Assembly (NCBI GenBank): GCA_019058245.1 | Contig: JAHPZJ010000013.1 | Span: 265,166 to 329,165, forward strand | Direction: 5' to 3' | Length of the DNA stretch: 64,000 nt | Origin: Promethearchaeota archaeon | Lineage (GTDB): Archaea; Asgardarchaeota; Lokiarchaeia; Sigyniarchaeales; SOKP01 | Shown here: positions 10,287 through 35,165 of the stretch, piece after piece | How the letters are laid out: each line of letters begins with the position of its first letter | Position numbering within the stretch: the stretch's first letter is position 1 | Made by a program: the position numbers and the translations under genes | Notes under the pieces: generated by a model | Told to the model about the DNA's origin: nothing | The model's input: only the letters and a program-made list of their open reading frames with translations | The model's database searches: none

Positions 10287-11330
10287 TTATTTTTTAGAAT
10301 GTAATAACGTTTTTGCCAACTTATAAAAACTTTCTTCTACATTTTTACCAGTTAATGCTGAGGTTTCTATATATTCTAAGTTCAGTTCTTCTGCTATCTT
10401 TGCAGCATCATTTATTGGTACTTTTCTTTCATTTAGTAAATCTTCTTTATTACCTAATATAAATCCTATTAATTTTTTTTGTGTTCTACCTATATTTTTA
10501 AAGACATCATTATACCAATTAGGAATACTCTCAAATGATTTAGGATTTGTTAGATCAAAGATTAAAATGACACCTTCTGAGCCTTGATAGAAGTGACGAC
10601 GCATAAGCTCAAATTTACTCTGACCAGCAATATCCCATAGAATTAAATTAATTAAAATATTATCTAAGTTTATATTTTTTTCTGAAACTGATACGCCAAG
10701 TGTTGGTATGTAAGTACGCATAAATGCATTATCAGTAAATCTAAGAATTGTGCTTGTTTTCCCTACACCAGGATCACCACAGACTACAATTTTAAAATGA
10801 TACCCATATTTTTTTCTTCGAAGTTTTGTATCTTCAGGAAATGCTTTTAATTCAGATTTTTGCTTCTCTTTGTTGAACAGATCATTTAAGATTTCTGATA
10901 CTTTTTTTTTCAATTTTATGATTTCAGCATAGATTTCATCTGATTCTACTTGATTGTTTTCTAATTCTATAATATTTTGAGCACTGTCATTGAAAGCAGA
11001 TTCAAGATAACCTAAGTATTTATAAAATATAGAATCATCTGATTCTCCAAAAAGCAATGTGAGTGATGATAACGCAACACCTCCACGTTTAGTTTCATCT
11101 GGACGTTCAATATATTTTGTTACACCTTTTAAATTTAACATGGGAAAAGGATAAATTACTAAAGATTGAGGAACAGCCCCTTGATCAGTAGAGAGCATAG
11201 TAACTGATTTAATACCTACTGACATACAAATATCATCAGATAAATCAATTGGATCCCATAGAAACGGTTTTGGGCCAATAATTTCATCTAATAATGTGTA
11301 AACTACAGCAGTAATTATTTCTTTTGACAT
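10287..11330 (-). CDS. uDENN/longin domain fused to Rab-like GTPase
   Basis: N-terminal LDEIIGPKP...DETKRGG; C-terminal GDPGVGKT, YIPTLG, WDIAGQ, NKED, ETSALTG. Confidence 0.85.
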   Translation of the reverse strand: MSKEIITAVVYTLLDEIIGPKPFLWDPIDLSDDICMSVGIKSVTMLSTDQGAVPQSLVIYPFPMLNLKGVTKYIERPDETKRGGVALSSLTLLFGESDDSIFYKYLGYLESAFNDSAQNIIELENNQVESDEIYAEIIKLKKKVSEILNDLFNKEKQKSELKAFPEDTKLRRKKYGYHFKIVVCGDPGVGKTSTILRFTDNAFMRTYIPTLGVSVSEKNINLDNILINLILWDIAGQSKFELMRRHFYQGSEGVILIFDLTNPKSFESIPNWYNDVFKNIGRTQKKLIGFILGNKEDLLNERKVPINDAAKIAEELNLEYIETSALTGKNVEESFYKLAKTLLHSKK

Positions 11331-11698
11331 TGTTGAGCGTAAAAGATAAAGTATAAAAAAAATCTAACTTATTTGTGTTTTCTTTTGATAAATTAAAAAA
11401 CTTAAAATTAATAAAAATTTGTAAAAGCAAAGATTATCTAAGTTTTAGCAAAAATTTTATAACGCTAATTTTGGAAGATTAAAATACAAGATTAAATTTT
11501 GATTTTCTAAATTTATTTAATTTTATATATTTCATTACCGTTCTGTTAATTAGATAAAACTAATATTAAATGATATAAGTATTGACAGTTCGTGAAACGT
11601 GCCTTTCACGTTAAATTCTATATATCAGCATAATACTTATTATTCAAAATGTTTTATCTCGATTTATAGCCAGATTCATTTTAAATATTCCTAAAAAC

Positions 11699-12742
11699 TC
11701 AAATATATGATTTGAATAAATGATTTGCGATAGTTGAGAAGGCATAATTAACATTTTCACCCAAGAGTGCCGAAGTCTCGATAAATTTCATTCTTAATTG
11801 ATCTGCTAATTGAGTTGCCATTTCGGATGTTACTTTCCTTTGTTCCACTAAATCTCTTTTATTACCAATAATAAATCCCTTAAATTTTGAAAACCTATAT
11901 TTTAACTGTTCAATTACATCTGAATACCATTTAAGTATATTATTAAAAGAGTCAATATGGGTTAAATCAAAAACGAAGAATACAGCATCGGACCCTTGAT
12001 AAAAATCCTGTCTCATAGTTTGAAATTTTTGTTGACCACCAATATCCCAGAGTGCTAATTGAACAATAGATTCATTGATTTTAAAGACCTTGTCCGAAAC
12101 CTGAACGCCAAGGGTAGGTACGTAGTTTCTCCTAAATGCGTTATTTGTATATCGTAATATTAAGGAGGTTTTTCCGACACCAGCATCACCAACAATTATT
12201 ATTTTAAATTTATAATCAATTAAACTTCGATCCTTGATTTTTATTGTTGGAAATTCTTCTTGTTCTTGTTGCGAAATCTCTTGAAGTTTTAATTCTTCTA
12301 AAAGGCTTTTTATGTTAAATTCAAGATGTTCTAATATTTGTATAAAATCTTCTCTAAAACTAGTTGATTTTTCTAAATTTATTATTGCTTGAGTTAGATT
12401 GTCAAAGGGGATAGAGAGATCATTAATATATTTATAAAAAATTGCATCATTAATATCCTGAAATAATAGAATTATTGCGGATTGACCAATTCCTCCACGT
12501 CTAGAAGCATCGTCCCATTTAATGTATTTTACCAATCCTTTTAATTTCATTGAAGTAAAGGGAAGGATCACTAAAGTCTTAGGAACAAGTCCTTGTTCTC
12601 CAGTTAAGATTGTTAAGGTTTTTATACTTATTTGAAGTAGTTCCATCTTTGAATATTGAGTACTAAGCCAAGCTACAGGATTTGGGCCTAACTTATCATT
12701 TAATTCTACATAAATAATGCCCGCTATTAATTGGCGCTCCAT
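11699..12742 (-). CDS. uDENN/longin domain fused to Rab-like GTPase (tandem paralogue B)
   Basis: LNDKLGPNP...DASRRGG; GDAGVGKT, WDIGGQ, NKRD, ETSALLG. Confidence 0.85.
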   Translation of the reverse strand: MERQLIAGIIYVELNDKLGPNPVAWLSTQYSKMELLQISIKTLTILTGEQGLVPKTLVILPFTSMKLKGLVKYIKWDDASRRGGIGQSAIILLFQDINDAIFYKYINDLSIPFDNLTQAIINLEKSTSFREDFIQILEHLEFNIKSLLEELKLQEISQQEQEEFPTIKIKDRSLIDYKFKIIIVGDAGVGKTSLILRYTNNAFRRNYVPTLGVQVSDKVFKINESIVQLALWDIGGQQKFQTMRQDFYQGSDAVFFVFDLTHIDSFNNILKWYSDVIEQLKYRFSKFKGFIIGNKRDLVEQRKVTSEMATQLADQLRMKFIETSALLGENVNYAFSTIANHLFKSYI

Positions 12743-12800
12743 GATTTTTAGAAACTTATCTTAATAAAGAATTAAAATTAGAATGATTATTTCTACAAAC

Positions 12801-13844
12801 TCAAGTATATGATTTGTATAAATGATTCGCGATTGTTGAAAATGCATAATTAACATTTTCACCCAAGAGTGCCGAAGTCTCAACAAATTTCAGCTCTAAT
12901 TGTTCTGCTAATTGCGTTGCCATATCAGAAGTTATCTTTCTTTGATCAGCTAAATCTCTTTTATTTCCAATAATAAATCCCTTTAATTCTGGAGATCTAT
13001 CTTTTACCTGTTCTATTACATCTGAATACCACTTAGGTATATTATTGAAAGATTCAATACGGGTTAAATCAAAAACGAAAAATACGGCATCAGACCCTTT
13101 ATAAAAATGCTGTCTCATAGTTTGAAATTTTTGCTGGCCACCAATATCCCAGAGTGTTAATTGAATAATAGATTCATCGATTTTAAAGACTTTATCGCTT
13201 ACCATAACACCTAAAGTTGGTACGTAATTTCTCCTAAAGGCGTTATTGGTATATCGTAATATTAAGGAGGTTTTTCCGACACTTGGATCGCCAACAATTA
13301 TTATTTTAAATTGATAATCGATTAAACTTCGATCCTTGATTTTTATTGCTGGGAATTCTTCTTGTTCTTGTTGTGAAATCTCTTGAAGTTTTAATTCTTC
13401 TAAGAGACTTTTTGTATTAAATTCAAGATGCTCTAATATATGTATGAAATCCTCTCTAGAACTAGTTGATTTTTCTAAATTTATTATGGCTTGAGTAAGA
13501 TTGTCAAAAGGAATAGATAGATCATTAATATATTTATAAAAAATTACATCATCAATATCTTGAAATAATAGAATTATTGCTGATTGACCAATTCCTCCAC
13601 GTCTAGAAGCATCGTCCCATTTAATGTATTTAACCAATCCTTTTAAATTCATTGAAGTAAAGGGAAGGATCACTAAAGTCTTAGGAACAAGGCCTTGTTC
13701 TCCAGTTAAAATCGTTAAGGTTTTTATACTTATTTGGATTAATTCCATCTGTGTAAATTGAGTACCAAGCCAAGCTACAGGATTTGGGCCCAATTCCTCA
13801 TTCATTTCTACATAAATAATACCAGTTATTAATTGTCGCTCCAT
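12801..13844 (-). CDS. uDENN/longin domain fused to Rab-like GTPase (tandem paralogue A)
   Basis: MNEELGPNP...DASRRGG; GDPSVGKT, WDIGGQ, NKRD, ETSALLG. Confidence 0.85.
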   Translation of the reverse strand: MERQLITGIIYVEMNEELGPNPVAWLGTQFTQMELIQISIKTLTILTGEQGLVPKTLVILPFTSMNLKGLVKYIKWDDASRRGGIGQSAIILLFQDIDDVIFYKYINDLSIPFDNLTQAIINLEKSTSSREDFIHILEHLEFNTKSLLEELKLQEISQQEQEEFPAIKIKDRSLIDYQFKIIIVGDPSVGKTSLILRYTNNAFRRNYVPTLGVMVSDKVFKIDESIIQLTLWDIGGQQKFQTMRQHFYKGSDAVFFVFDLTRIESFNNIPKWYSDVIEQVKDRSPELKGFIIGNKRDLADQRKITSDMATQLAEQLELKFVETSALLGENVNYAFSTIANHLYKSYT

Positions 13845-21239: not shown

Positions 21240-22142
21240 ATGTTGAATTTTAAATCTGAACAAAAGATATTTAAAATAGGTAATGTTCTATTTGGAGGTC
21301 AACCAGGAGAAAATCCAATTGTAATGATAGCTACAGTTTTCTACACGAAACATGCTGCATTATTGGATGAAAAACTTGGAAAATTTGACAAAAATATTCT
21401 AGAAAAAGAATTAAGTGATTATACAGAAATCATTGAAGAAACAAAATTACAAGGAGTAATAGATGTAATTGGAGCATATCCAGAAGCATTAATAAAAGAA
21501 TGTGAATTTATAGCAGATAGCGTAGAATATCCCTTTTTAGTTGATGGATTAAATGATTCCTCAAGGATCCCCGCAATGGAAGGATTAAAGGAAATTGGAT
21601 TAATGGATCGAGCTATATTAAATAGTATTGATGAAAATACTAATGATGAAAATTTAGAGAAATTAAAGCAAATTGGGGTGAAAAACGCAGTATTATTAAC
21701 ATTTGGAAATAAATATATATTCCCCCAACAAAAATTAAAATTCTTACAAGAGATATTGATTCCAAAAGCTAAAAAAGCAAATATTGAAAATATAATAGTT
21801 GATACAGCGGTTTTAGATTTACCCTCAATTTCTATTAATTTCGAAACAGCGGGGTTAGTAAAGAAGGAATTAGGATTACCGACTGGATTTGCTCCTTCTA
21901 ATGCAATTTATGGATGGACTTTTATCAAAAAATTTGGGGAAGTTGCTCGATGTGGAGCAATTGCTTCAATTATGACATATTGTGCCACAGCTCCTAGTGA
22001 TTTTATTTTATTTGGCCCAATTAAATTTGCAAAATGTATTGTACCCGCAGTTGCTTTAATTTCTGGAGTTAATTCTTATTTTCGAAAAAGAGTAAAAAGA
22101 CAGAAAATATCTGAACGCACACCCCTAAAAACAATTTTTTAA
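21240..22142 (+). CDS. MtrH/MtgA-like pterin-binding methyltransferase
   Basis: EQKIFKIG...GGQPGENP, RAILNSI, LPTGFAPSNA, FILFGPI. Confidence 0.85.
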   Translation: MLNFKSEQKIFKIGNVLFGGQPGENPIVMIATVFYTKHAALLDEKLGKFDKNILEKELSDYTEIIEETKLQGVIDVIGAYPEALIKECEFIADSVEYPFLVDGLNDSSRIPAMEGLKEIGLMDRAILNSIDENTNDENLEKLKQIGVKNAVLLTFGNKYIFPQQKLKFLQEILIPKAKKANIENIIVDTAVLDLPSISINFETAGLVKKELGLPTGFAPSNAIYGWTFIKKFGEVARCGAIASIMTYCATAPSDFILFGPIKFAKCIVPAVALISGVNSYFRKRVKRQKISERTPLKTIF

Positions 22143-23638
22143 GCTATGTATCGTAAAAGCAAATCTTTTGTTTGAAATAAAAATTGTGCTAATTGTTTAT
22201 TAATTATTTTTTTTTTCTTTTCATTATCTACCAAAAACAAAATAAACATACTATTATCTTCAATTTGGATTCTTTTGAAAAGAATAATTGAATTCGCTAC
22301 TTTAAATATTGCTTCTTCTTTCTGTAAAGCTTTGAATTTTGAAAATATTTTAAATAGCATAGCAAATTGTGGCGCAGTTATTTCAAATACGTTCATAACT
22401 TCTGATTTTGGTATTGTAATAAATTCCATTATCTCTGAACTGTAAAAGTCCGCTAAAACTAATCCATCAATACTTAATAACAAAGATAAATAAGATGAAG
22501 TTGCTAAAGAAAAATTTTTAAGATTATGATTAATCAAATCTCTATTTGGACTTAATTTTGATATACCTGAGGAAAATGCTCTTAAAATTGTAAAAATTTG
22601 GAAAATACTTGTAATATATATTTCAAGCGGTTCATTAGAAGGTATTTCAGATAATTTTTTTTTGATATACTCTATATTATCTTTAATTTCTCCAGATTTT
22701 AGTATATCAGAATCTCCTTTAGATAAGATATAAACAATTGGAGTATTTTGATTGAATTTATTTAATACATTTTTTAAATTCTGAAGATAATCAATACTTT
22801 CTTCAAATCTATTGCGATTTTTGATATCAATAAAATAAAAAAGTAAATCTGCTTCATATAAATAAATTTCTGCTTTAGTTATATATTTCTTTCTAAACTT
22901 ATATTGCCCTCCTAAATCCCATAAAAAGATTGTTGCCCCTAAAGCTTCAATGGATTTGATACTGGCTCCAGATGTAGGTTTTAACCCAATTAGTTTACTG
23001 TATTTTCGATCGACTGATAATAAAAAACTTGTTTTTCCGCTATCATCCAATCCTGCAAATAAGATTTTCATTTTTCTATGGGTTGTAATAGGAGTTGAAG
23101 GACTTTGTTCAATTTTCACTAATTTTAATAAAAAACTGTGGAACATTGATGAAACATCTTCACGTGGAGGATAATATTTCTCTATCTTTTCATCAAAAGT
23201 TTTGAAAAATTCATAAACTATGGGCTTTATTCGATTTATATTATTGTAAAGAAAACTCCGACTATTTTCTTCTATTAATATAGAAAATGCCGTAGCTACA
23301 GGGCGTTCCGAGCCTAATCTAATAAAGTGGAAATATGTGAGGGCAGTAGATTTAAAATCAGGATATGGTAAAATTGCGAAATATTGTATTTTTTTAAGAT
23401 CTTTCTCTCGAGATATTATCTTATCACTAATAAACAGGCTTAAATTTTTAATTGAAATTTGAGTTATATCTCGCATAGACAATATTAGTTCATTTTCCTT
23501 TTTAGATGTCTCATTAATTTCCTTTAGTTCTTTCTCAGTATAGTAATCTGGAAAGCAATAAATAGGTGCTGGACCAAGTTCACCATAAACGCTTAAAACA
23601 AAACCCTTCACAATTGAAGCTTTGAATAATTCTTCCAT
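22139..23638 (-). CDS. uDENN/longin + Rag/Arf-like GTPase + roadblock fusion protein
   Basis: VYGELGPAP longin start; GLDDSGKT, PTSG, WDLGGQ, SKGD, TSIFQ; C-terminal LLSIDGLVLADF roadblock-like segment. Confidence 0.8.
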   Translation of the reverse strand: MEELFKASIVKGFVLSVYGELGPAPIYCFPDYYTEKELKEINETSKKENELILSMRDITQISIKNLSLFISDKIISREKDLKKIQYFAILPYPDFKSTALTYFHFIRLGSERPVATAFSILIEENSRSFLYNNINRIKPIVYEFFKTFDEKIEKYYPPREDVSSMFHSFLLKLVKIEQSPSTPITTHRKMKILFAGLDDSGKTSFLLSVDRKYSKLIGLKPTSGASIKSIEALGATIFLWDLGGQYKFRKKYITKAEIYLYEADLLFYFIDIKNRNRFEESIDYLQNLKNVLNKFNQNTPIVYILSKGDSDILKSGEIKDNIEYIKKKLSEIPSNEPLEIYITSIFQIFTILRAFSSGISKLSPNRDLINHNLKNFSLATSSYLSLLLSIDGLVLADFYSSEIMEFITIPKSEVMNVFEITAPQFAMLFKIFSKFKALQKEEAIFKVANSIILFKRIQIEDNSMFILFLVDNEKKKKIINKQLAQFLFQTKDLLLRYIA

Positions 23639-26326: not shown

Positions 26327-27295
26327 GTGGAAAAAGATCTCAAACAATCAATATTATATTTAAAGAAAGAAGAACCTTCTAAACCAGAAGTCTCAAAATT
26401 AATGTTCACGGGGCTTGACGATGCAGGCAAAACAAGCATAATTTTGTCGCTTCAAAGAGAATTCTCAAAGATCGCAATACTTTCTCCGACAAGAGGTGCA
26501 CAAAGAAGAATTTTTAGTTTTTTGGGAAAAGAGATTGCGGAATGGGATCTTGGAGGGCAATTAGCTTATCGGATTGCCTATTTAAAAAATCCAGGTAAAT
26601 ATTTTGAGGGAACAGAGATTGCTATATATGTAATTGATATTCAAAACAAAGAAAGATTCTCAGAGGCTATTAGTTATTTTAAGGATGTAATAAAACAGTT
26701 TGAAGAATTAGAGATTGAGCCTCCAATATATGTTTTTCTTCATAAATTTGATCCCGCACTAAAAAGAAATGCCCAAAATGAGATGAACGCATTAATTATT
26801 GATTTAAAAGATAAATTAAAAGCAACTAAGTATAAAAAATTATTCTATTATGAAACTTCTATTTACAATTTTGGTTCAATAATTGCTGCTATGTCTGAAA
26901 TTCTTTTAGATTTATATCCAAAATCAGAATTAATAGAAAAGACAATTTTCGAATTTGCAAAAAAAGTTGAATCTGAGGGAGTTGTGATTATTGATGATAA
27001 TTCACTTATTATAGGATCATACTATAAAGATGACGAAATAAAACATCTCCTCACTGCAAGTGTTCCATATTTCCTTACTTTGCACGAATCATTCCAATTC
27101 ACAAATCCCATGGAAGAAAAATATGGAGATCGGATGTTAATTCAGCGTTTTGGCAAAAATTTCATATTTAAACAATTTCAATTAAAGAAAGAAACAACAC
27201 CATATTATTTACTACTTGTAAAGGAGGAACCTGTTTTTAATAAGGAAGACCTCGAATCTTTTGCAAACTTATTACAGGAAATTCTTTATAAATAA
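26327..27295 (+). CDS. Rag-like (Arf-related) small GTPase with C-terminal roadblock domain
   Basis: GLDDAGKT, PTRG, WDLGGQ, Rag-type HKFD and TSIY; C-terminal VVIIDDNSLIIGSY. Confidence 0.85.
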   Translation: MEKDLKQSILYLKKEEPSKPEVSKLMFTGLDDAGKTSIILSLQREFSKIAILSPTRGAQRRIFSFLGKEIAEWDLGGQLAYRIAYLKNPGKYFEGTEIAIYVIDIQNKERFSEAISYFKDVIKQFEELEIEPPIYVFLHKFDPALKRNAQNEMNALIIDLKDKLKATKYKKLFYYETSIYNFGSIIAAMSEILLDLYPKSELIEKTIFEFAKKVESEGVVIIDDNSLIIGSYYKDDEIKHLLTASVPYFLTLHESFQFTNPMEEKYGDRMLIQRFGKNFIFKQFQLKKETTPYYLLLVKEEPVFNKEDLESFANLLQEILYK

Positions 27296-27469: not shown

Positions 27470-28546
27470 TTGATCATATGCCAGAATTGTGGAACGACGA
27501 ATAATGAACTTACTACGCGTGTTTGCAGGAATTGTGGAGCAATATTGCCAGTTTTCTCTAAAAGTAGTAGAGGAAGAAATAAAAAGGACGTGGTAGTGGA
27601 GAAGAAAAAAAAAAAAAAGGTAACTAAAAAGGTTGAAAATAAACCCATCGAACCAGAAAAAAAAATAAAAGAAGATTTAATGTTAGAGGAAATTCCAAAA
27701 GAGATAGAGAGAGATGAAAAAATTGGTAAATTACAAGAGATTCCAGCTACATTAGAAGAAGAATTTGAAAATCCAATTCGTGAAGAGAATAAAACTTCAA
27801 TCTTGCAAGAAATTCCAGCTCAACCTTTTAAAGGATCTATATTTAACTCTAAAATAAGCATGGAAAAGCCCTCACCATTACCGCTTCCATCTTCTCGATC
27901 CGAGAACGTAATTACAGATGCTTTTGCAGAACTTAAAAATTCTATTCTGGAGGATCAGAAAAAAGAAAAGGAATCTCCCGCATCACCGATATCTTTAGAG
28001 AGTGGAAAAATTGAAGAATCTATTTTAAAGCAAAAACAATTAGAAAAAGATATGACTGAAGTTTTAGGGTTTCTTTCGAAAAAAATTTCAGTTAAAAAAT
28101 TGGAAATTCCAAAAGTTAATAAAAAGGAAAAAGAAGAACCAAAGGAAGAAATAGCTCCTTCTAGTATGAATGAAATTTTGAATAGGCTATTAACATTAGA
28201 TTTAAATATTGAGGCTTCAGCCATTATAAAATCAGATGGAACAATATTAGCCTCAGCAACATCTAGTAGAATTTCTGATTCTTTATTTGCAACAATAGGA
28301 ATGAATTTATCAATGATAGGGACAGATATTATAGAAGGATTAAGCGCTGGGATATTAAAATCTATCTCTCTTAAAGCGACTGAAGGTGTATTAGATCTTG
28401 CGCCTATAGATAAAACAAACCCAAGTGTCAAAGATATGTTTTTAATATTATTTTCTCATTCGAAAGTTAAAAGTGGAATAATTTCTTTTGCGGTTAATAT
28501 CGTTAAAAAACAATTAAAAGAGTATTTAGGTTTAAAAAAGGCATAG
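27470..28546 (+). CDS. Zinc-ribbon + low-complexity linker + roadblock/LAMTOR-like domain protein
   Basis: CQNCG...CRNCG; C-terminal IEASAIIKSDGTILAS roadblock pattern. Confidence 0.8.
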   Translation: MIICQNCGTTNNELTTRVCRNCGAILPVFSKSSRGRNKKDVVVEKKKKKKVTKKVENKPIEPEKKIKEDLMLEEIPKEIERDEKIGKLQEIPATLEEEFENPIREENKTSILQEIPAQPFKGSIFNSKISMEKPSPLPLPSSRSENVITDAFAELKNSILEDQKKEKESPASPISLESGKIEESILKQKQLEKDMTEVLGFLSKKISVKKLEIPKVNKKEKEEPKEEIAPSSMNEILNRLLTLDLNIEASAIIKSDGTILASATSSRISDSLFATIGMNLSMIGTDIIEGLSAGILKSISLKATEGVLDLAPIDKTNPSVKDMFLILFSHSKVKSGIISFAVNIVKKQLKEYLGLKKA

Positions 28547-29667: not shown

Positions 29668-31476
29668 ATGGACTTATTACCTAAAGTCTTTAGAACTGAA
29701 GGAAGTATTACTGAATTCGACCCTAGCAAAATTTTTGAAAGTATTATTAAAGAAACTGGTATGAGTGAGACAGATGCAAAAAATATCACGGAATTAGTTG
29801 TAAGAAGAATAATTAGTTCTGGTATTAAATTTCTATCAGGACCTCATATAAGAGAAATTGTTTGTTCGATACTTTCAGAACAACATTTTGAAAATGAGCG
29901 AAAATTATATACTCGGATTGGAATGCCTTTAATGGATTATGAAGAATTGCTAGAGAAAGAATCTGGAACAACGCTAAATATATGGATAAATCCGGAAAAA
30001 ATCAATCACTCATCTGCAAATCAAATAGCGGAGGAATATGCTCATTTAAGAATACTTAGTAATGAGGAATCCAAAGCGCACTTGTATGGCGATATTCATA
30101 TTAATGGATTACGTTATTTTAATCTAAGACCATTCACTCAAATGTGGGATCCTCGAATAATTTTAAACAATGGATTTCCACCCTTTTATAGTCTAAATAA
30201 TCCATTTAAGCAAGATCCCCCAAAAGACCTTATTTCTGCTCTTTCTCAAATTTTAAGATGGTTTGAAACTGTTCAGAATGAATTTTATGGAACTCAAGGT
30301 TTAAATTTATTTTCTCTTTTTTTAGCTCCATATGTTACAAATTTATCAAAAGAAAAACTCAAACAAGAAATTCGAAAATTAATATCTGAGATAAATTTAT
30401 TACCAATTATAACTGGTCGAGAAATTCCATTAATAAAAATAACGTCAAGTAATTCTATCCTTAAATCCTTTTCTAAACTTCCTACTATTAATCCTAAAGG
30501 AAAAATTAATGATAATTATTCAGATTATCATAATGAATGTACAGAACTCTTTAAAACTCTAATCTTCATTTTTAAGGAAATTAGTGGCTATAATTTACAT
30601 TATCCAATCATTAAATTTCAGATATTAGTAAATAATAAATTTTTTGAAGTTATAGAAACGAATTACTCTAATTTCTGGGATGAAATTTATACTTTTAAAA
30701 ACCTTTTTTCAATCGATTTTTGTTTTGCCCCATATTATAATAAAAATCTTGAAAAAATTGCTGAAAAGAGAATATACAATTTTGGAACTCTTCAAAGTAT
30801 TACTCTAAATCTGCCAAGATACGCCTATAACAGTCAAGATGAAGAAATATTTCTGGAAATATTGCATTCGAAAGTTAAATTATGTTCTGGGATTTTACTA
30901 AAAAAATATGAAATGATTGAAAAAAGACTAAAATTGAAACATTTACCTTGTTGTAGCAGTAGTATTAATAATGAACCATTATTTAAATTGGAAAATCAAG
31001 ACCTATCATTTAGTCTAGTTGGATTAAATGAATCTATCAAAATATTAACAAATTATGAACTCCATCAAAATCCTGATGCCGTTAAGCTAGGTATGAAAAT
31101 ATTAAATGAATTAAATAATATATGTAATGAATTATCAGTAACTCATGGGAAAAATTTCTTATTAAGTGAAAACGTATCAGAAAAGGCAATAAAAAGATTT
31201 TCTAAATTAGATCTAAGACTTATTCCAGAAGGACTAAGAAAAATATCTACTAATCTGAATCGTGAATATACAAATTCAATTCACTTTCGTAATGACGTTG
31301 AGGTTGAATTATTCAAACGAATAGAAATTCAAGGAGAATTTCATCAGTATATTAAAAATGGCGCAATTGAATATATTTCTTTACATGATCTTGAAAACAA
31401 CAACTTATCTATTCAAGAATTTCTCAATATAATCAGTAAAAAGTCACCAATATCAAGCATAAATTTTTCTTCTTAA
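29668..31476 (+). CDS. ATP-cone + degenerate anaerobic ribonucleotide reductase (NrdD-like) protein lacking the glycyl-radical domain
   Basis: ATP cone (FDPSKI...SGPHIREIV); HLYGDIHI, GTLQSITLNLPR, VGLNE, YTNS retained; no C-terminal CxxC/RxxGY. Confidence 0.8.
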   Translation: MDLLPKVFRTEGSITEFDPSKIFESIIKETGMSETDAKNITELVVRRIISSGIKFLSGPHIREIVCSILSEQHFENERKLYTRIGMPLMDYEELLEKESGTTLNIWINPEKINHSSANQIAEEYAHLRILSNEESKAHLYGDIHINGLRYFNLRPFTQMWDPRIILNNGFPPFYSLNNPFKQDPPKDLISALSQILRWFETVQNEFYGTQGLNLFSLFLAPYVTNLSKEKLKQEIRKLISEINLLPIITGREIPLIKITSSNSILKSFSKLPTINPKGKINDNYSDYHNECTELFKTLIFIFKEISGYNLHYPIIKFQILVNNKFFEVIETNYSNFWDEIYTFKNLFSIDFCFAPYYNKNLEKIAEKRIYNFGTLQSITLNLPRYAYNSQDEEIFLEILHSKVKLCSGILLKKYEMIEKRLKLKHLPCCSSSINNEPLFKLENQDLSFSLVGLNESIKILTNYELHQNPDAVKLGMKILNELNNICNELSVTHGKNFLLSENVSEKAIKRFSKLDLRLIPEGLRKISTNLNREYTNSIHFRNDVEVELFKRIEIQGEFHQYIKNGAIEYISLHDLENNNLSIQEFLNIISKKSPISSINFSS

Positions 31477-31635: not shown

Positions 31636-33099
31636 TTGACTAAATCAAAGGATAAAGAAAATCGGGATAAACAGACTGAAGAAGAAACCATTACTTCTAA
31701 ATCAGAAATTATTGAAACAATTGTATTAAGTATATTTGATGAAAACGGTCCAACTCCTAAAATATATTGGCCTCATGATTTAGACGAACAAGCAGGATTA
31801 TTAATTGCTATGAAAACCATTAGTCTATTAATGGGAGATTCAACTTATCAAGATGGAACGGAAATTGAAGGAGTTAATTATTTTGGAATATTACCTTTTC
31901 CTGATTTGAAATTGAATGGTTTAACATATTTTTTCTTAATCCCCGATGATAAAGCTCGTGGTAAAGCTTTAGCAGCAACAATTACAATATTAATAAAAGA
32001 AGAAAATAAAGTGTTTTTCTATGAAAATATGAAATACTTACGAGTTATAATGGATAAATCAGCAACTCAAATTCAGAAAAATAAGCAACTCAGTGAACGG
32101 GAACTCATTATGGAGGAATTTCGGGAGGAAATCTTCGAATTTGCTAGTGAAGTAAAAGATCCTTTTTCTACTAGAAGACATATCAAAATTCTTCTTGTAG
32201 GATTAGATAAAGCGGGTAAATCAAGTTTTTTATTTGGGATTAAGAGGAAATATTCTGAAATTATTAAATCTATGCCAACAAAAGGTGTCGAAAGATCAGA
32301 AGAAAACATTTTTGAGGAACAGAATTCCCAAATTTCAGTTTGGGATTTAGGAGGGCAACAACAATATCGAGAGAAATACCTAGAACAGAGTAAAATATAT
32401 TTGTATAATGTCGATCTAATATTTTATTTTATTGATATTCAAGACGTTGCCAGAATTGATGAAACTATTGAATTGTTTAGAAGAATCATAAATAAACTTA
32501 TAGATTTCGAAGAATTTCCACCGATTGTTGTTTGTTTAAATAAATTTGATCCTGATCTCAAGGGTTCTAAGGAGATTTTTAAAAATTTAGAAATAATCGC
32601 TAATGCAATAGAGTTAAATTCAGATAAATTCTTTATTAAAATTTTCCAGACAAGTATTTTTGACCATTGGAGTCTTATTTCAGCATACTCTTTTGGATTA
32701 TCTCAATTAAGTCCTAATCGAGAATTATTCAGGAATCAATTGAAAAAATTTGCAAAAAAAACAAATTCAGATGCTATTCTATTGTTAAATGAAAATGGGA
32801 TTATTCTATCAAATTTCTCCAAAACTGATATTTCTGGACAATTATTCGAAGTGAGTGCACCTCACTTTCAATCACTTTACAAGAACTTTAAAGAGTTTAA
32901 GTTATTAGAGCAAGATTTTATCGTATCTTCTGGGATAACAGAAAAATCTAAAAAAGTGATCTTTAAGCGAATAACCGTTGAGAAATATAATTTATATTTA
33001 CTCTTATTTTTAGAAAAATCACTTGAAATAGATAAAATAGAAAAAAATTTGCCAGAATTTTCAAAAAACCTTGTTGATTTAATCCATACATATATATAA
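31636..33099 (+). CDS. uDENN/longin + Rag-like GTPase + roadblock fusion protein
   Basis: IFDENGPTP, FFLIPDDKARG; GLDKAGKS, PTKG, WDLGGQ, NKFD, TSIFD; AILLLNENGIILS roadblock. Confidence 0.85.
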   Translation: MTKSKDKENRDKQTEEETITSKSEIIETIVLSIFDENGPTPKIYWPHDLDEQAGLLIAMKTISLLMGDSTYQDGTEIEGVNYFGILPFPDLKLNGLTYFFLIPDDKARGKALAATITILIKEENKVFFYENMKYLRVIMDKSATQIQKNKQLSERELIMEEFREEIFEFASEVKDPFSTRRHIKILLVGLDKAGKSSFLFGIKRKYSEIIKSMPTKGVERSEENIFEEQNSQISVWDLGGQQQYREKYLEQSKIYLYNVDLIFYFIDIQDVARIDETIELFRRIINKLIDFEEFPPIVVCLNKFDPDLKGSKEIFKNLEIIANAIELNSDKFFIKIFQTSIFDHWSLISAYSFGLSQLSPNRELFRNQLKKFAKKTNSDAILLLNENGIILSNFSKTDISGQLFEVSAPHFQSLYKNFKEFKLLEQDFIVSSGITEKSKKVIFKRITVEKYNLYLLLFLEKSLEIDKIEKNLPEFSKNLVDLIHTYI

Positions 33100-34529: not shown

Positions 34530-35165
34530 TTGATTTATAAGATTTACTTAATTGATGCTGATAATGGGATATCCCTTTTTGAATCAACATTTAGAAAATT
34601 AGAAAAAATCCAAGATGATATTCTAACTGGATTCTTTAAAGCAATAAACACAACCATAGATGTTATTCAAAAATCGATGTCTAAAGGAAGAAGAGTAAAC
34701 GAGATGAATAGAGTTTTACAATCAGAAGATTCTACAATACTTATTTATTATCATCCTCTTTCAAGAATTCTTTTCTGCTCAATTTCTGATGCTGATGACA
34801 ATACTGAAAAAATTGAAGAAGTTACTCATAAAATTGCGAATCGATTTTGGAAGAAGCATCAATCTGATCTTAAAAATTTTAGAGTAACTACAGATAAAAG
34901 CAGATTTCATACTTTAATTGCGGATATTGAAAATTTAACAATTGGAGGACGTATTGCAGAAGTATTTCCTAAATTAATTATTGTTAAAAAAGTATTAGAA
35001 AAAGTTTTGACTATGGGAATGATAGATGATTTAGATTTTAAGGTGGCTATGCAATGCACAGGAAAGAATTCACCTCTAAAAATATCTAGAACTTTAGACA
35101 AAAAGCGAACAGCTATAAATGAAGTTCTGAAGAAATTAGAAGAATTAGATATTATTATGCTCTAA
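34530..35165 (+). CDS. Longin domain + C-terminal winged-helix protein
   Basis: IYLIDADNGISLF...LTGFFKAI longin pattern; KISRTL...INEVLKKLEELDII wHTH pattern. Confidence 0.72.
   Translation: MIYKIYLIDADNGISLFESTFRKLEKIQDDILTGFFKAINTTIDVIQKSMSKGRRVNEMNRVLQSEDSTILIYYHPLSRILFCSISDADDNTEKIEEVTHKIANRFWKKHQSDLKNFRVTTDKSRFHTLIADIENLTIGGRIAEVFPKLIIVKKVLEKVLTMGMIDDLDFKVAMQCTGKNSPLKISRTLDKKRTAINEVLKKLEELDIIML

Follow-up and report, generated by a model that had tools for sequence, protein, structure and literature searches.

Does a single archaeal protein carry both a Rag-like GTPase and the arginine finger that would switch such a GTPase off and, if so, on which GTPase would the finger act? The question is raised by gene A, a 487-residue product encoded near the middle of a 64,000-nucleotide stretch (the window) of a lokiarchaeal contig. 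An initial annotation had described the gene as a three-part open reading frame in which a longin domain of the folliculin (FLCN)/SMCR8 type precedes a Rag-type GTPase and a roadblock-like domain, had equated its Arg108 with the catalytic Arg164 of FLCN and had proposed a one-chain forerunner of the Rag/FLCN switch. The reading frame is real, all three domains were recovered and the Arg108 codon lies where it had been placed (Table 1). As for the interpretation, the class of the longin, the register with R164, the conservation of the arginine and the Rag type of the GTPase were borne out, while the forerunner was not.

Table 1. Features of gene A and of related genes in the window (positions in the window; residues numbered in the gene A product)
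Feature	Position	Strand	Description or basis
Gene A: longin, Rag-like G domain, roadblock	31636..33099	+	487 aa, TTG start, Lokiarchaeia
FLCN/NPRL2/SMCR8-class longin	31711..32151	+	residues ~26-172; model pLDDT 93.7
GP motif G38-P39, opens strand beta2	31747..31752	+	sequence and longin model
Arg108, candidate arginine finger, beta4-beta5 loop	31957..31959	+	CGT within DDKARG
Longin/G-domain linker, ~10 aa	32152..32181	+	length almost constant; motif spacing
Rag-type G domain	32182..32703	+	intact G1-G5, catalytic Gln241
TSIFD (G5)	32650..32664	+	sequence
Roadblock (Rag C-terminal) domain	32713..33096	+	secondary-structure order, Foldseek
Gene B: sister paralogue, same three domains	22139..23638	-	GP present, RG lost; loop at ~23297-23323
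Gene C: Rag-like G domain and roadblock	26327..27295	+	LokiRagO (PDB 8YL2) orthologue, E 3e-85
Three tandem longin, Rab-like GTPase fusions	10287..13844	-	GP, RG and G3 Gln present

Structural comparison supports the assignment of the modelled N-terminal domain to the FLCN/NPRL2/SMCR8 class of longins. The model, based on a 126-sequence alignment, shows longin topology and places R108 between beta4 and beta5, which is where the fingers of DENN/longin GAPs sit (bioRxiv 10.64898/2026.01.05.697756). Its best match is the Lokiarchaeal longin 8YQG (Z 18.6, rmsd 2.0, 138 aligned), followed by the GAP-class longins at Z 11-13.6, namely Lst4 (Z 13.6), FLCN (8DHB_J; Z 13.1, rmsd 2.7, 134 aligned) and the chains of GATOR1 and C9orf72-SMCR8 (Z 11-12.4), with the TRAPP and adaptin longins ranking below them (Z < 9.6). 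As FLCN is inseparable from the non-catalytic Lst4 in this ranking, structure gives the class of the longin and not the member. No DENN domain follows the longin; the G domain comes directly after it according to Pfam, the model and Foldseek, and gene A therefore differs from folliculin proper, which is longin plus DENN. The solved relative 8YQG, described as a dimer, has the GP motif without the arginine and is a further non-catalytic longin type.

The register of R108 with FLCN R164 is likewise supported, at the level of sequence. When Asgard longins, gene A among them, are combined in a profile, the invariant RG aligns with R164-G165 in the DSLARG of human FLCN (6ULG_L, residues 151-202; the top eukaryotic match), at an E of 0.051 that is weak and, the profile having been built partly from proteins chosen by Pfam Folliculin (PF11704), not fully independent. 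This match emerged only once stand-alone Asgard longins had joined the profile, and direct searches for FLCN with profiles A3 and A6 and with one orthologue returned only 8YQG or noise. Weak as it is, the alignment nevertheless agrees with the loop position of R108 in the longin model, and the proposed equivalence with R164 is upheld by the two together. PF11704 itself matches gene A at residues 96-158 below its cut-off (E 0.002); gene A is the sole match in the source genome, none of 14 control genomes has one, and orthologues of gene A in six genomes pass the cut-off.

Lack of conservation of Arg108 among orthologues had been named at the outset as one of the findings that would refute the proposal. 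The residue is kept in all 120 close homologues, with A-R-G invariant, and in all 66 wider orthologues, down to 34-42% identity. Within clade A, both R108 (85 sequences) and G38-P39 are invariant while residues 105, 106 and 110 beside R108 vary, a pattern that goes beyond chance. About ten other GP+RG longins were found in the source genome, however, so the motif may be inherited rather than catalytic, and the RG loop is also seen in many Asgard longins elsewhere, including stand-alone ones and the tails of very large proteins. On this reading the whole family would use the arginine for structure or binding, the longin would serve for docking or in a GEF-like role, and gene A would be a modular GTPase of a kind ordinary in Asgard archaea, in keeping with the failure of structure to separate FLCN from Lst4 and with the fact that longin pairs are mostly GEFs (PMC10933270). 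This is judged unlikely, given that R108 appears in register with a proven catalytic residue, that the whole clade of the paralogue B (see below) lost the arginine specifically, with GP and alpha1 conserved, and that arginine and GP have been lost together in longin-Rab fusions. Among 55 such fusions the arginine is lost in five, all five also without GP, and GP is present in 46 of the 50 that retain it (Fisher p 4e-5, kinship ignored). Four stand-alone GP+RG longins of 160-175 aa located elsewhere in the source genome (C1:19101-19577, C14:106836-107327, C24:6480-7001 and C10:129453-129950) are further candidate GAP subunits.

The remainder of gene A is Rag-like, as had been claimed from its TSIFD G5 motif. 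G1-G5 are intact, Gtr1_RagA is the best Pfam family for residues 184-393 (E 1e-25), and the G domain together with the C-terminal part aligns over ~300 columns with LokiRagO and eukaryotic Rag/Gtr structures, the first 38 Foldseek matches being all Rag-family. The C-terminal secondary structure follows the roadblock order. The named homologues of gene A are nearly all Asgard, chiefly Promethearchaeota/Lokiarchaeia, and a search for longer homologues gave clade A alone. A direct orthologue, WP_147663355.1, is encoded in 'Ca. Prometheoarchaeum syntrophicum' MK-D1 (41% identity, ARG kept). A promoter scan gave a result at chance level.

Gene B, a paralogue with 32% identity to gene A, bears directly on the role of the arginine. 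GP is found in 69 of 70 B-clade sequences and RG in none of the 70, with the alpha1 residues conserved. In trees restricted to archaeal rows, A and B form sister clades for the longin and for the GTPase (98/96 and 99/98; 97/92 in a further tree), and their agreement across separately treed domains shows a whole-gene duplication with subsequent loss of the finger in one copy. Arg112 of the source-genome B, which a small alignment had offered as the equivalent of R108, was rejected: only 7 of 70 B sequences have arginine at the corresponding place, and in none of them does it form RG.

Both genes were found in most genomes of the order, mainly as single copies, and they lie no more than 23 kb apart in 68 of the 69 tallied genomes having both on one contig; the median distance on a shared contig is 8.8 kb. 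Synteny is no stronger for A and B than for the housekeeping genes nearby, so the linkage alone is weak evidence, and synteny was discounted as a sign of function since unrelated neighbours are conserved to the same degree. A-type and B-like genes were also seen tail-to-tail, 6 bp apart, in a distant lineage with different neighbours (L247:8936-11916); in the two members seen of that B-like clade, Val replaces the Pro before the G2 Thr.

Prediction of an A:B complex gave a score of 0.45 (best control 0.01), within a range, up to 0.60, in which the mark applied is reached by only 7 of 80 solved complexes, yet by both of the mismatches that reach it at any score (2 of 110, compared with 58 of the 80 solved complexes). 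The runs share at least 89% of contacts, with a partner pLDDT of at least 77, and the score may stem from likeness to solved Rag dimers. The modelling thus gives weak support to a complex of A and B, which on all the evidence is judged somewhat more likely than not. By no test run did A and B match RagA and RagC.

The best explanation of the whole, which in our estimation is evenly poised between being right and being wrong, is that A and B are the two unequal members of a longin GAP, with A as the catalytic one; that A has GAP activity of some kind is probable. The A longin would pair with the Arg-less B longin as SMCR8 does with C9orf72 and FLCN with FNIP, and the roadblock domains of the two would probably pair as in Rag dimers. 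The two alpha1 helices would make up a pocket that receives the switch regions of a GTPase with GTP bound; there R108 would stabilise the transition state and B would supply the opposite wall. In eukaryotic longin pairs the GTPase is touched by each of the two members, and neither can be dispensed with (bioRxiv 2021.04.13.439632; 2022.06.28.498039); in FLCN-FNIP2 and C9orf72-SMCR8 the GTPase lies in a two-longin pocket, and mutation of the non-catalytic longin abolishes activity.

The substrate would most likely be met in trans, either as the G domain of a second A-type chain or as a separate Rag such as the product of gene C. The latter, which is also the orthologue of MK-D1 WP_147663357.1 and sits between A and B wherever one locus spans the two, is a candidate substrate of A. 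The G domain of B would be a less likely target: the catalytic Gln is present in 83 of 85 A but only 68 of 78 B sequences, and B of MK-D1 has a Lys at this position, which makes a general substrate role for it unlikely. A more specific version, in which the A+B two-chain module is an asymmetric longin GAP and a Rag-like dimer at once, with R108 turning off one of the module's own G domains, is put forward tentatively and as the lesser possibility. If true, A+B would be a GTPase pair that times itself, and an Asgard GAP longin would have gained an identified target.

The conserved Arg-less paralogue fits such a two-chain GAP better than it fits a self-GAP, as the initial annotation had it, in which the G domain served by R108 would be the one in the same chain, in cis, or one within an A:A homodimer, and B would be unneeded. 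The better preservation of the catalytic Gln in A than in B, the occurrence of A in family f3 genomes where no B was detected, the description of 8YQG as a dimer and the modelling of longin-GTPases as homodimers (Tran 2024; PMC10933270) all agree with a self-GAP, as does the activity of an engineered ARF1-SMCR8 fusion, though this was obtained via a 50-residue linker. The linker of gene A, at ~10 residues, renders cis action doubtful; judging from known longin topology, it would emerge from the face opposite the GTPase pocket. The motif spacing across it is 61-63 in clade A, compared with 79-90 in longin-Rab fusions. Furthermore, the full-length monomer model (pTM 0.49) has disordered switches and packs its domains without confidence, the solved FLCN-FNIP2 and C9orf72-SMCR8 complexes have a two-longin pocket, and f3 has, one gene away from A, a stand-alone longin that lacks the arginine. 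Self-GAP action is regarded as rather unlikely, and a strict cis action of R108 as improbable.

The genomes apparently lacking B deserve separate mention. Gene B was not found in three A-bearing genomes of family f3, which are 78-88% complete, nor in one other A-bearing genome that is 66% complete. The neighbouring stand-alone longin of f3, of ~169 aa (L046:12350-12859, L044:9452-9982 and L042:3-524), is a possible substitute partner of A. It was also considered as part of a split B and rejected, as its long branch attaches outside A+B and no tested GTPase-roadblock protein of f3 groups with B.

Elsewhere in the window, the three tandem longin-Rab fusions carry a longin of gene A's family on a different GTPase. 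With a linker ~22 residues longer than that of A, they are more plausible candidates for cis action; in the complete genome G055 no such fusion was found. The gene at 29668-31476 (+) is NrdD-like, scoring 194 bits against an NCBIfam cut-off of 326, with no glycyl-radical motif visible at its end; it adjoins A in family f1 and is missing or a remnant at other loci. Following gene C, co-oriented with it and syntenic in f1, is a gene for a protein with a Zn-ribbon, a long charged linker and a roadblock-like C-terminus (27470-28546, +). On the other side of A, a small protein (34530-35165, +) has a weak TrmB-type helix-turn-helix match at its end, and the cytoplasmic tail of a 1409-aa membrane protein (39847-44076, -) resembles it by eye; the GP/RG longin profile had no match in either.

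The distribution of the fusion has consequences for its proposed ancestry. Longin, Rag-type G domain and roadblock were found fused in one taxonomic order only, in a sample that is small outside the class. The longin of gene A is also fused to Rab-like GTPases across Lokiarchaeia, and its occurrence on two GTPase classes points to domain shuffling; in the other Asgard groups checked, GP+Arg longins are stand-alone or lie within much longer proteins. That both modules of A resemble eukaryotic counterparts would suit an ancestral one-chain form, later split into the eukaryotic FLCN and Rags. Such an origin is nevertheless very improbable, as the fusions seen in the other Lokiarchaeia that were checked are of longin with Rab, six genomes of other Asgard groups (seven with G187) have longins without GTPase fusion, and one longin type is shared by two GTPase classes. 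The forerunner suggested at the outset thus finds no support from a fusion found only in a single taxonomic order, and this distribution, in a small sample, points to a lineage-specific product.

Parts of this picture have been published. Tran 2024 (PMC10933270) described MK-D1 GTPases fused between longin and roadblock (LGR), noted that these may require GAPs and found the partners of longin-fused GTPases hard to assign. The MK-D1 LGR GTPase WP_147663355.1 is orthologous to gene A, with the same domain order, and in the accessible portion of the supplement it matches the A orthologue in genome G105. No longin arginine finger is described there for LGR GTPases, and the B orthologue WP_147663364.1 is labelled XGR, its N-terminal domain being given as unknown. 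Asgard longins of the FLCN/SMCR8 type with a GP motif and an arginine finger, both in the same structural positions as in gene A, are reported in the available part of PMC12290439 (Traffic 2025), so the finger as such is already on record for Asgard longins. No fusion to a GTPase is described in that text, which does not settle the target GTPase, whereas gene A is a Rag-like fusion with an Arg-less twin. The literature search found no paper placing an arginine finger in Asgard longin-GTPase fusions and none on 8YQG, 8YL2, 8ZLA or 9M28 in this context, though such papers may exist beyond the literature covered. The LGR architecture and the Asgard arginine finger are each known, and it is their combination, together with the Arg-less twin, that appears to be new.

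In this family a single chain combines the arginine finger with a Rag-like GTPase, and the Arg-less B is a natural control. The family bears on the question, raised in PMC12290439, of the GTPase targets of Asgard longins that have an arginine finger, and on the suggestion that longin-fused GTPases may need GAPs (PMC10933270). Orthologues of A, B and C all occur in the cultured MK-D1 (WP_147663355.1, WP_147663364.1 and WP_147663357.1), one of them with a structure (8YL2), and the A/B asymmetry makes the open question testable in that strain. Should the GAP activity prove true, arginine-finger longin GAP chemistry, and perhaps asymmetric pairing, would predate eukaryotes; even then the fusion would not become the ancestor of FLCN or of the Rags.

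Among known systems, the Rag/Gtr proteins and LokiRagO/LokiRagM (PDB 8YL2, 8ZLA, 9M28) are the best matches in sequence and structure, sharing the G domain, the roadblock and a TSI-type G5, to which gene A adds the N-terminal longin. The monomeric DENN GAPs Avl9 and DENND6A have the finger between beta4 and beta5 as in gene A (bioRxiv 10.64898/2026.01.05.697756) and show that some longin GAPs can dispense with a partner longin; unlike gene A, they possess a full DENN module and no fused GTPase. FLCN-FNIP2, the GAP of RagC (PDB 8DHB, 6NZD), C9orf72-SMCR8, the GAP of ARF1 (7MGE), and NPRL2-NPRL3 of GATOR1, the GAP of RagA, share with gene A the longin fold, the beta4-beta5 arginine and GP, and A and B are a candidate counterpart of their catalytic/non-catalytic pairs. 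In C9orf72-SMCR8, GP occurs on both longins and the arginine on one (PMC12290439), which is the motif pattern of A and B. Compared with FLCN, SMCR8 and GATOR1, the longin of gene A is followed by neither a DENN nor a winged-helix part, and its GTPase lies in the same chain.
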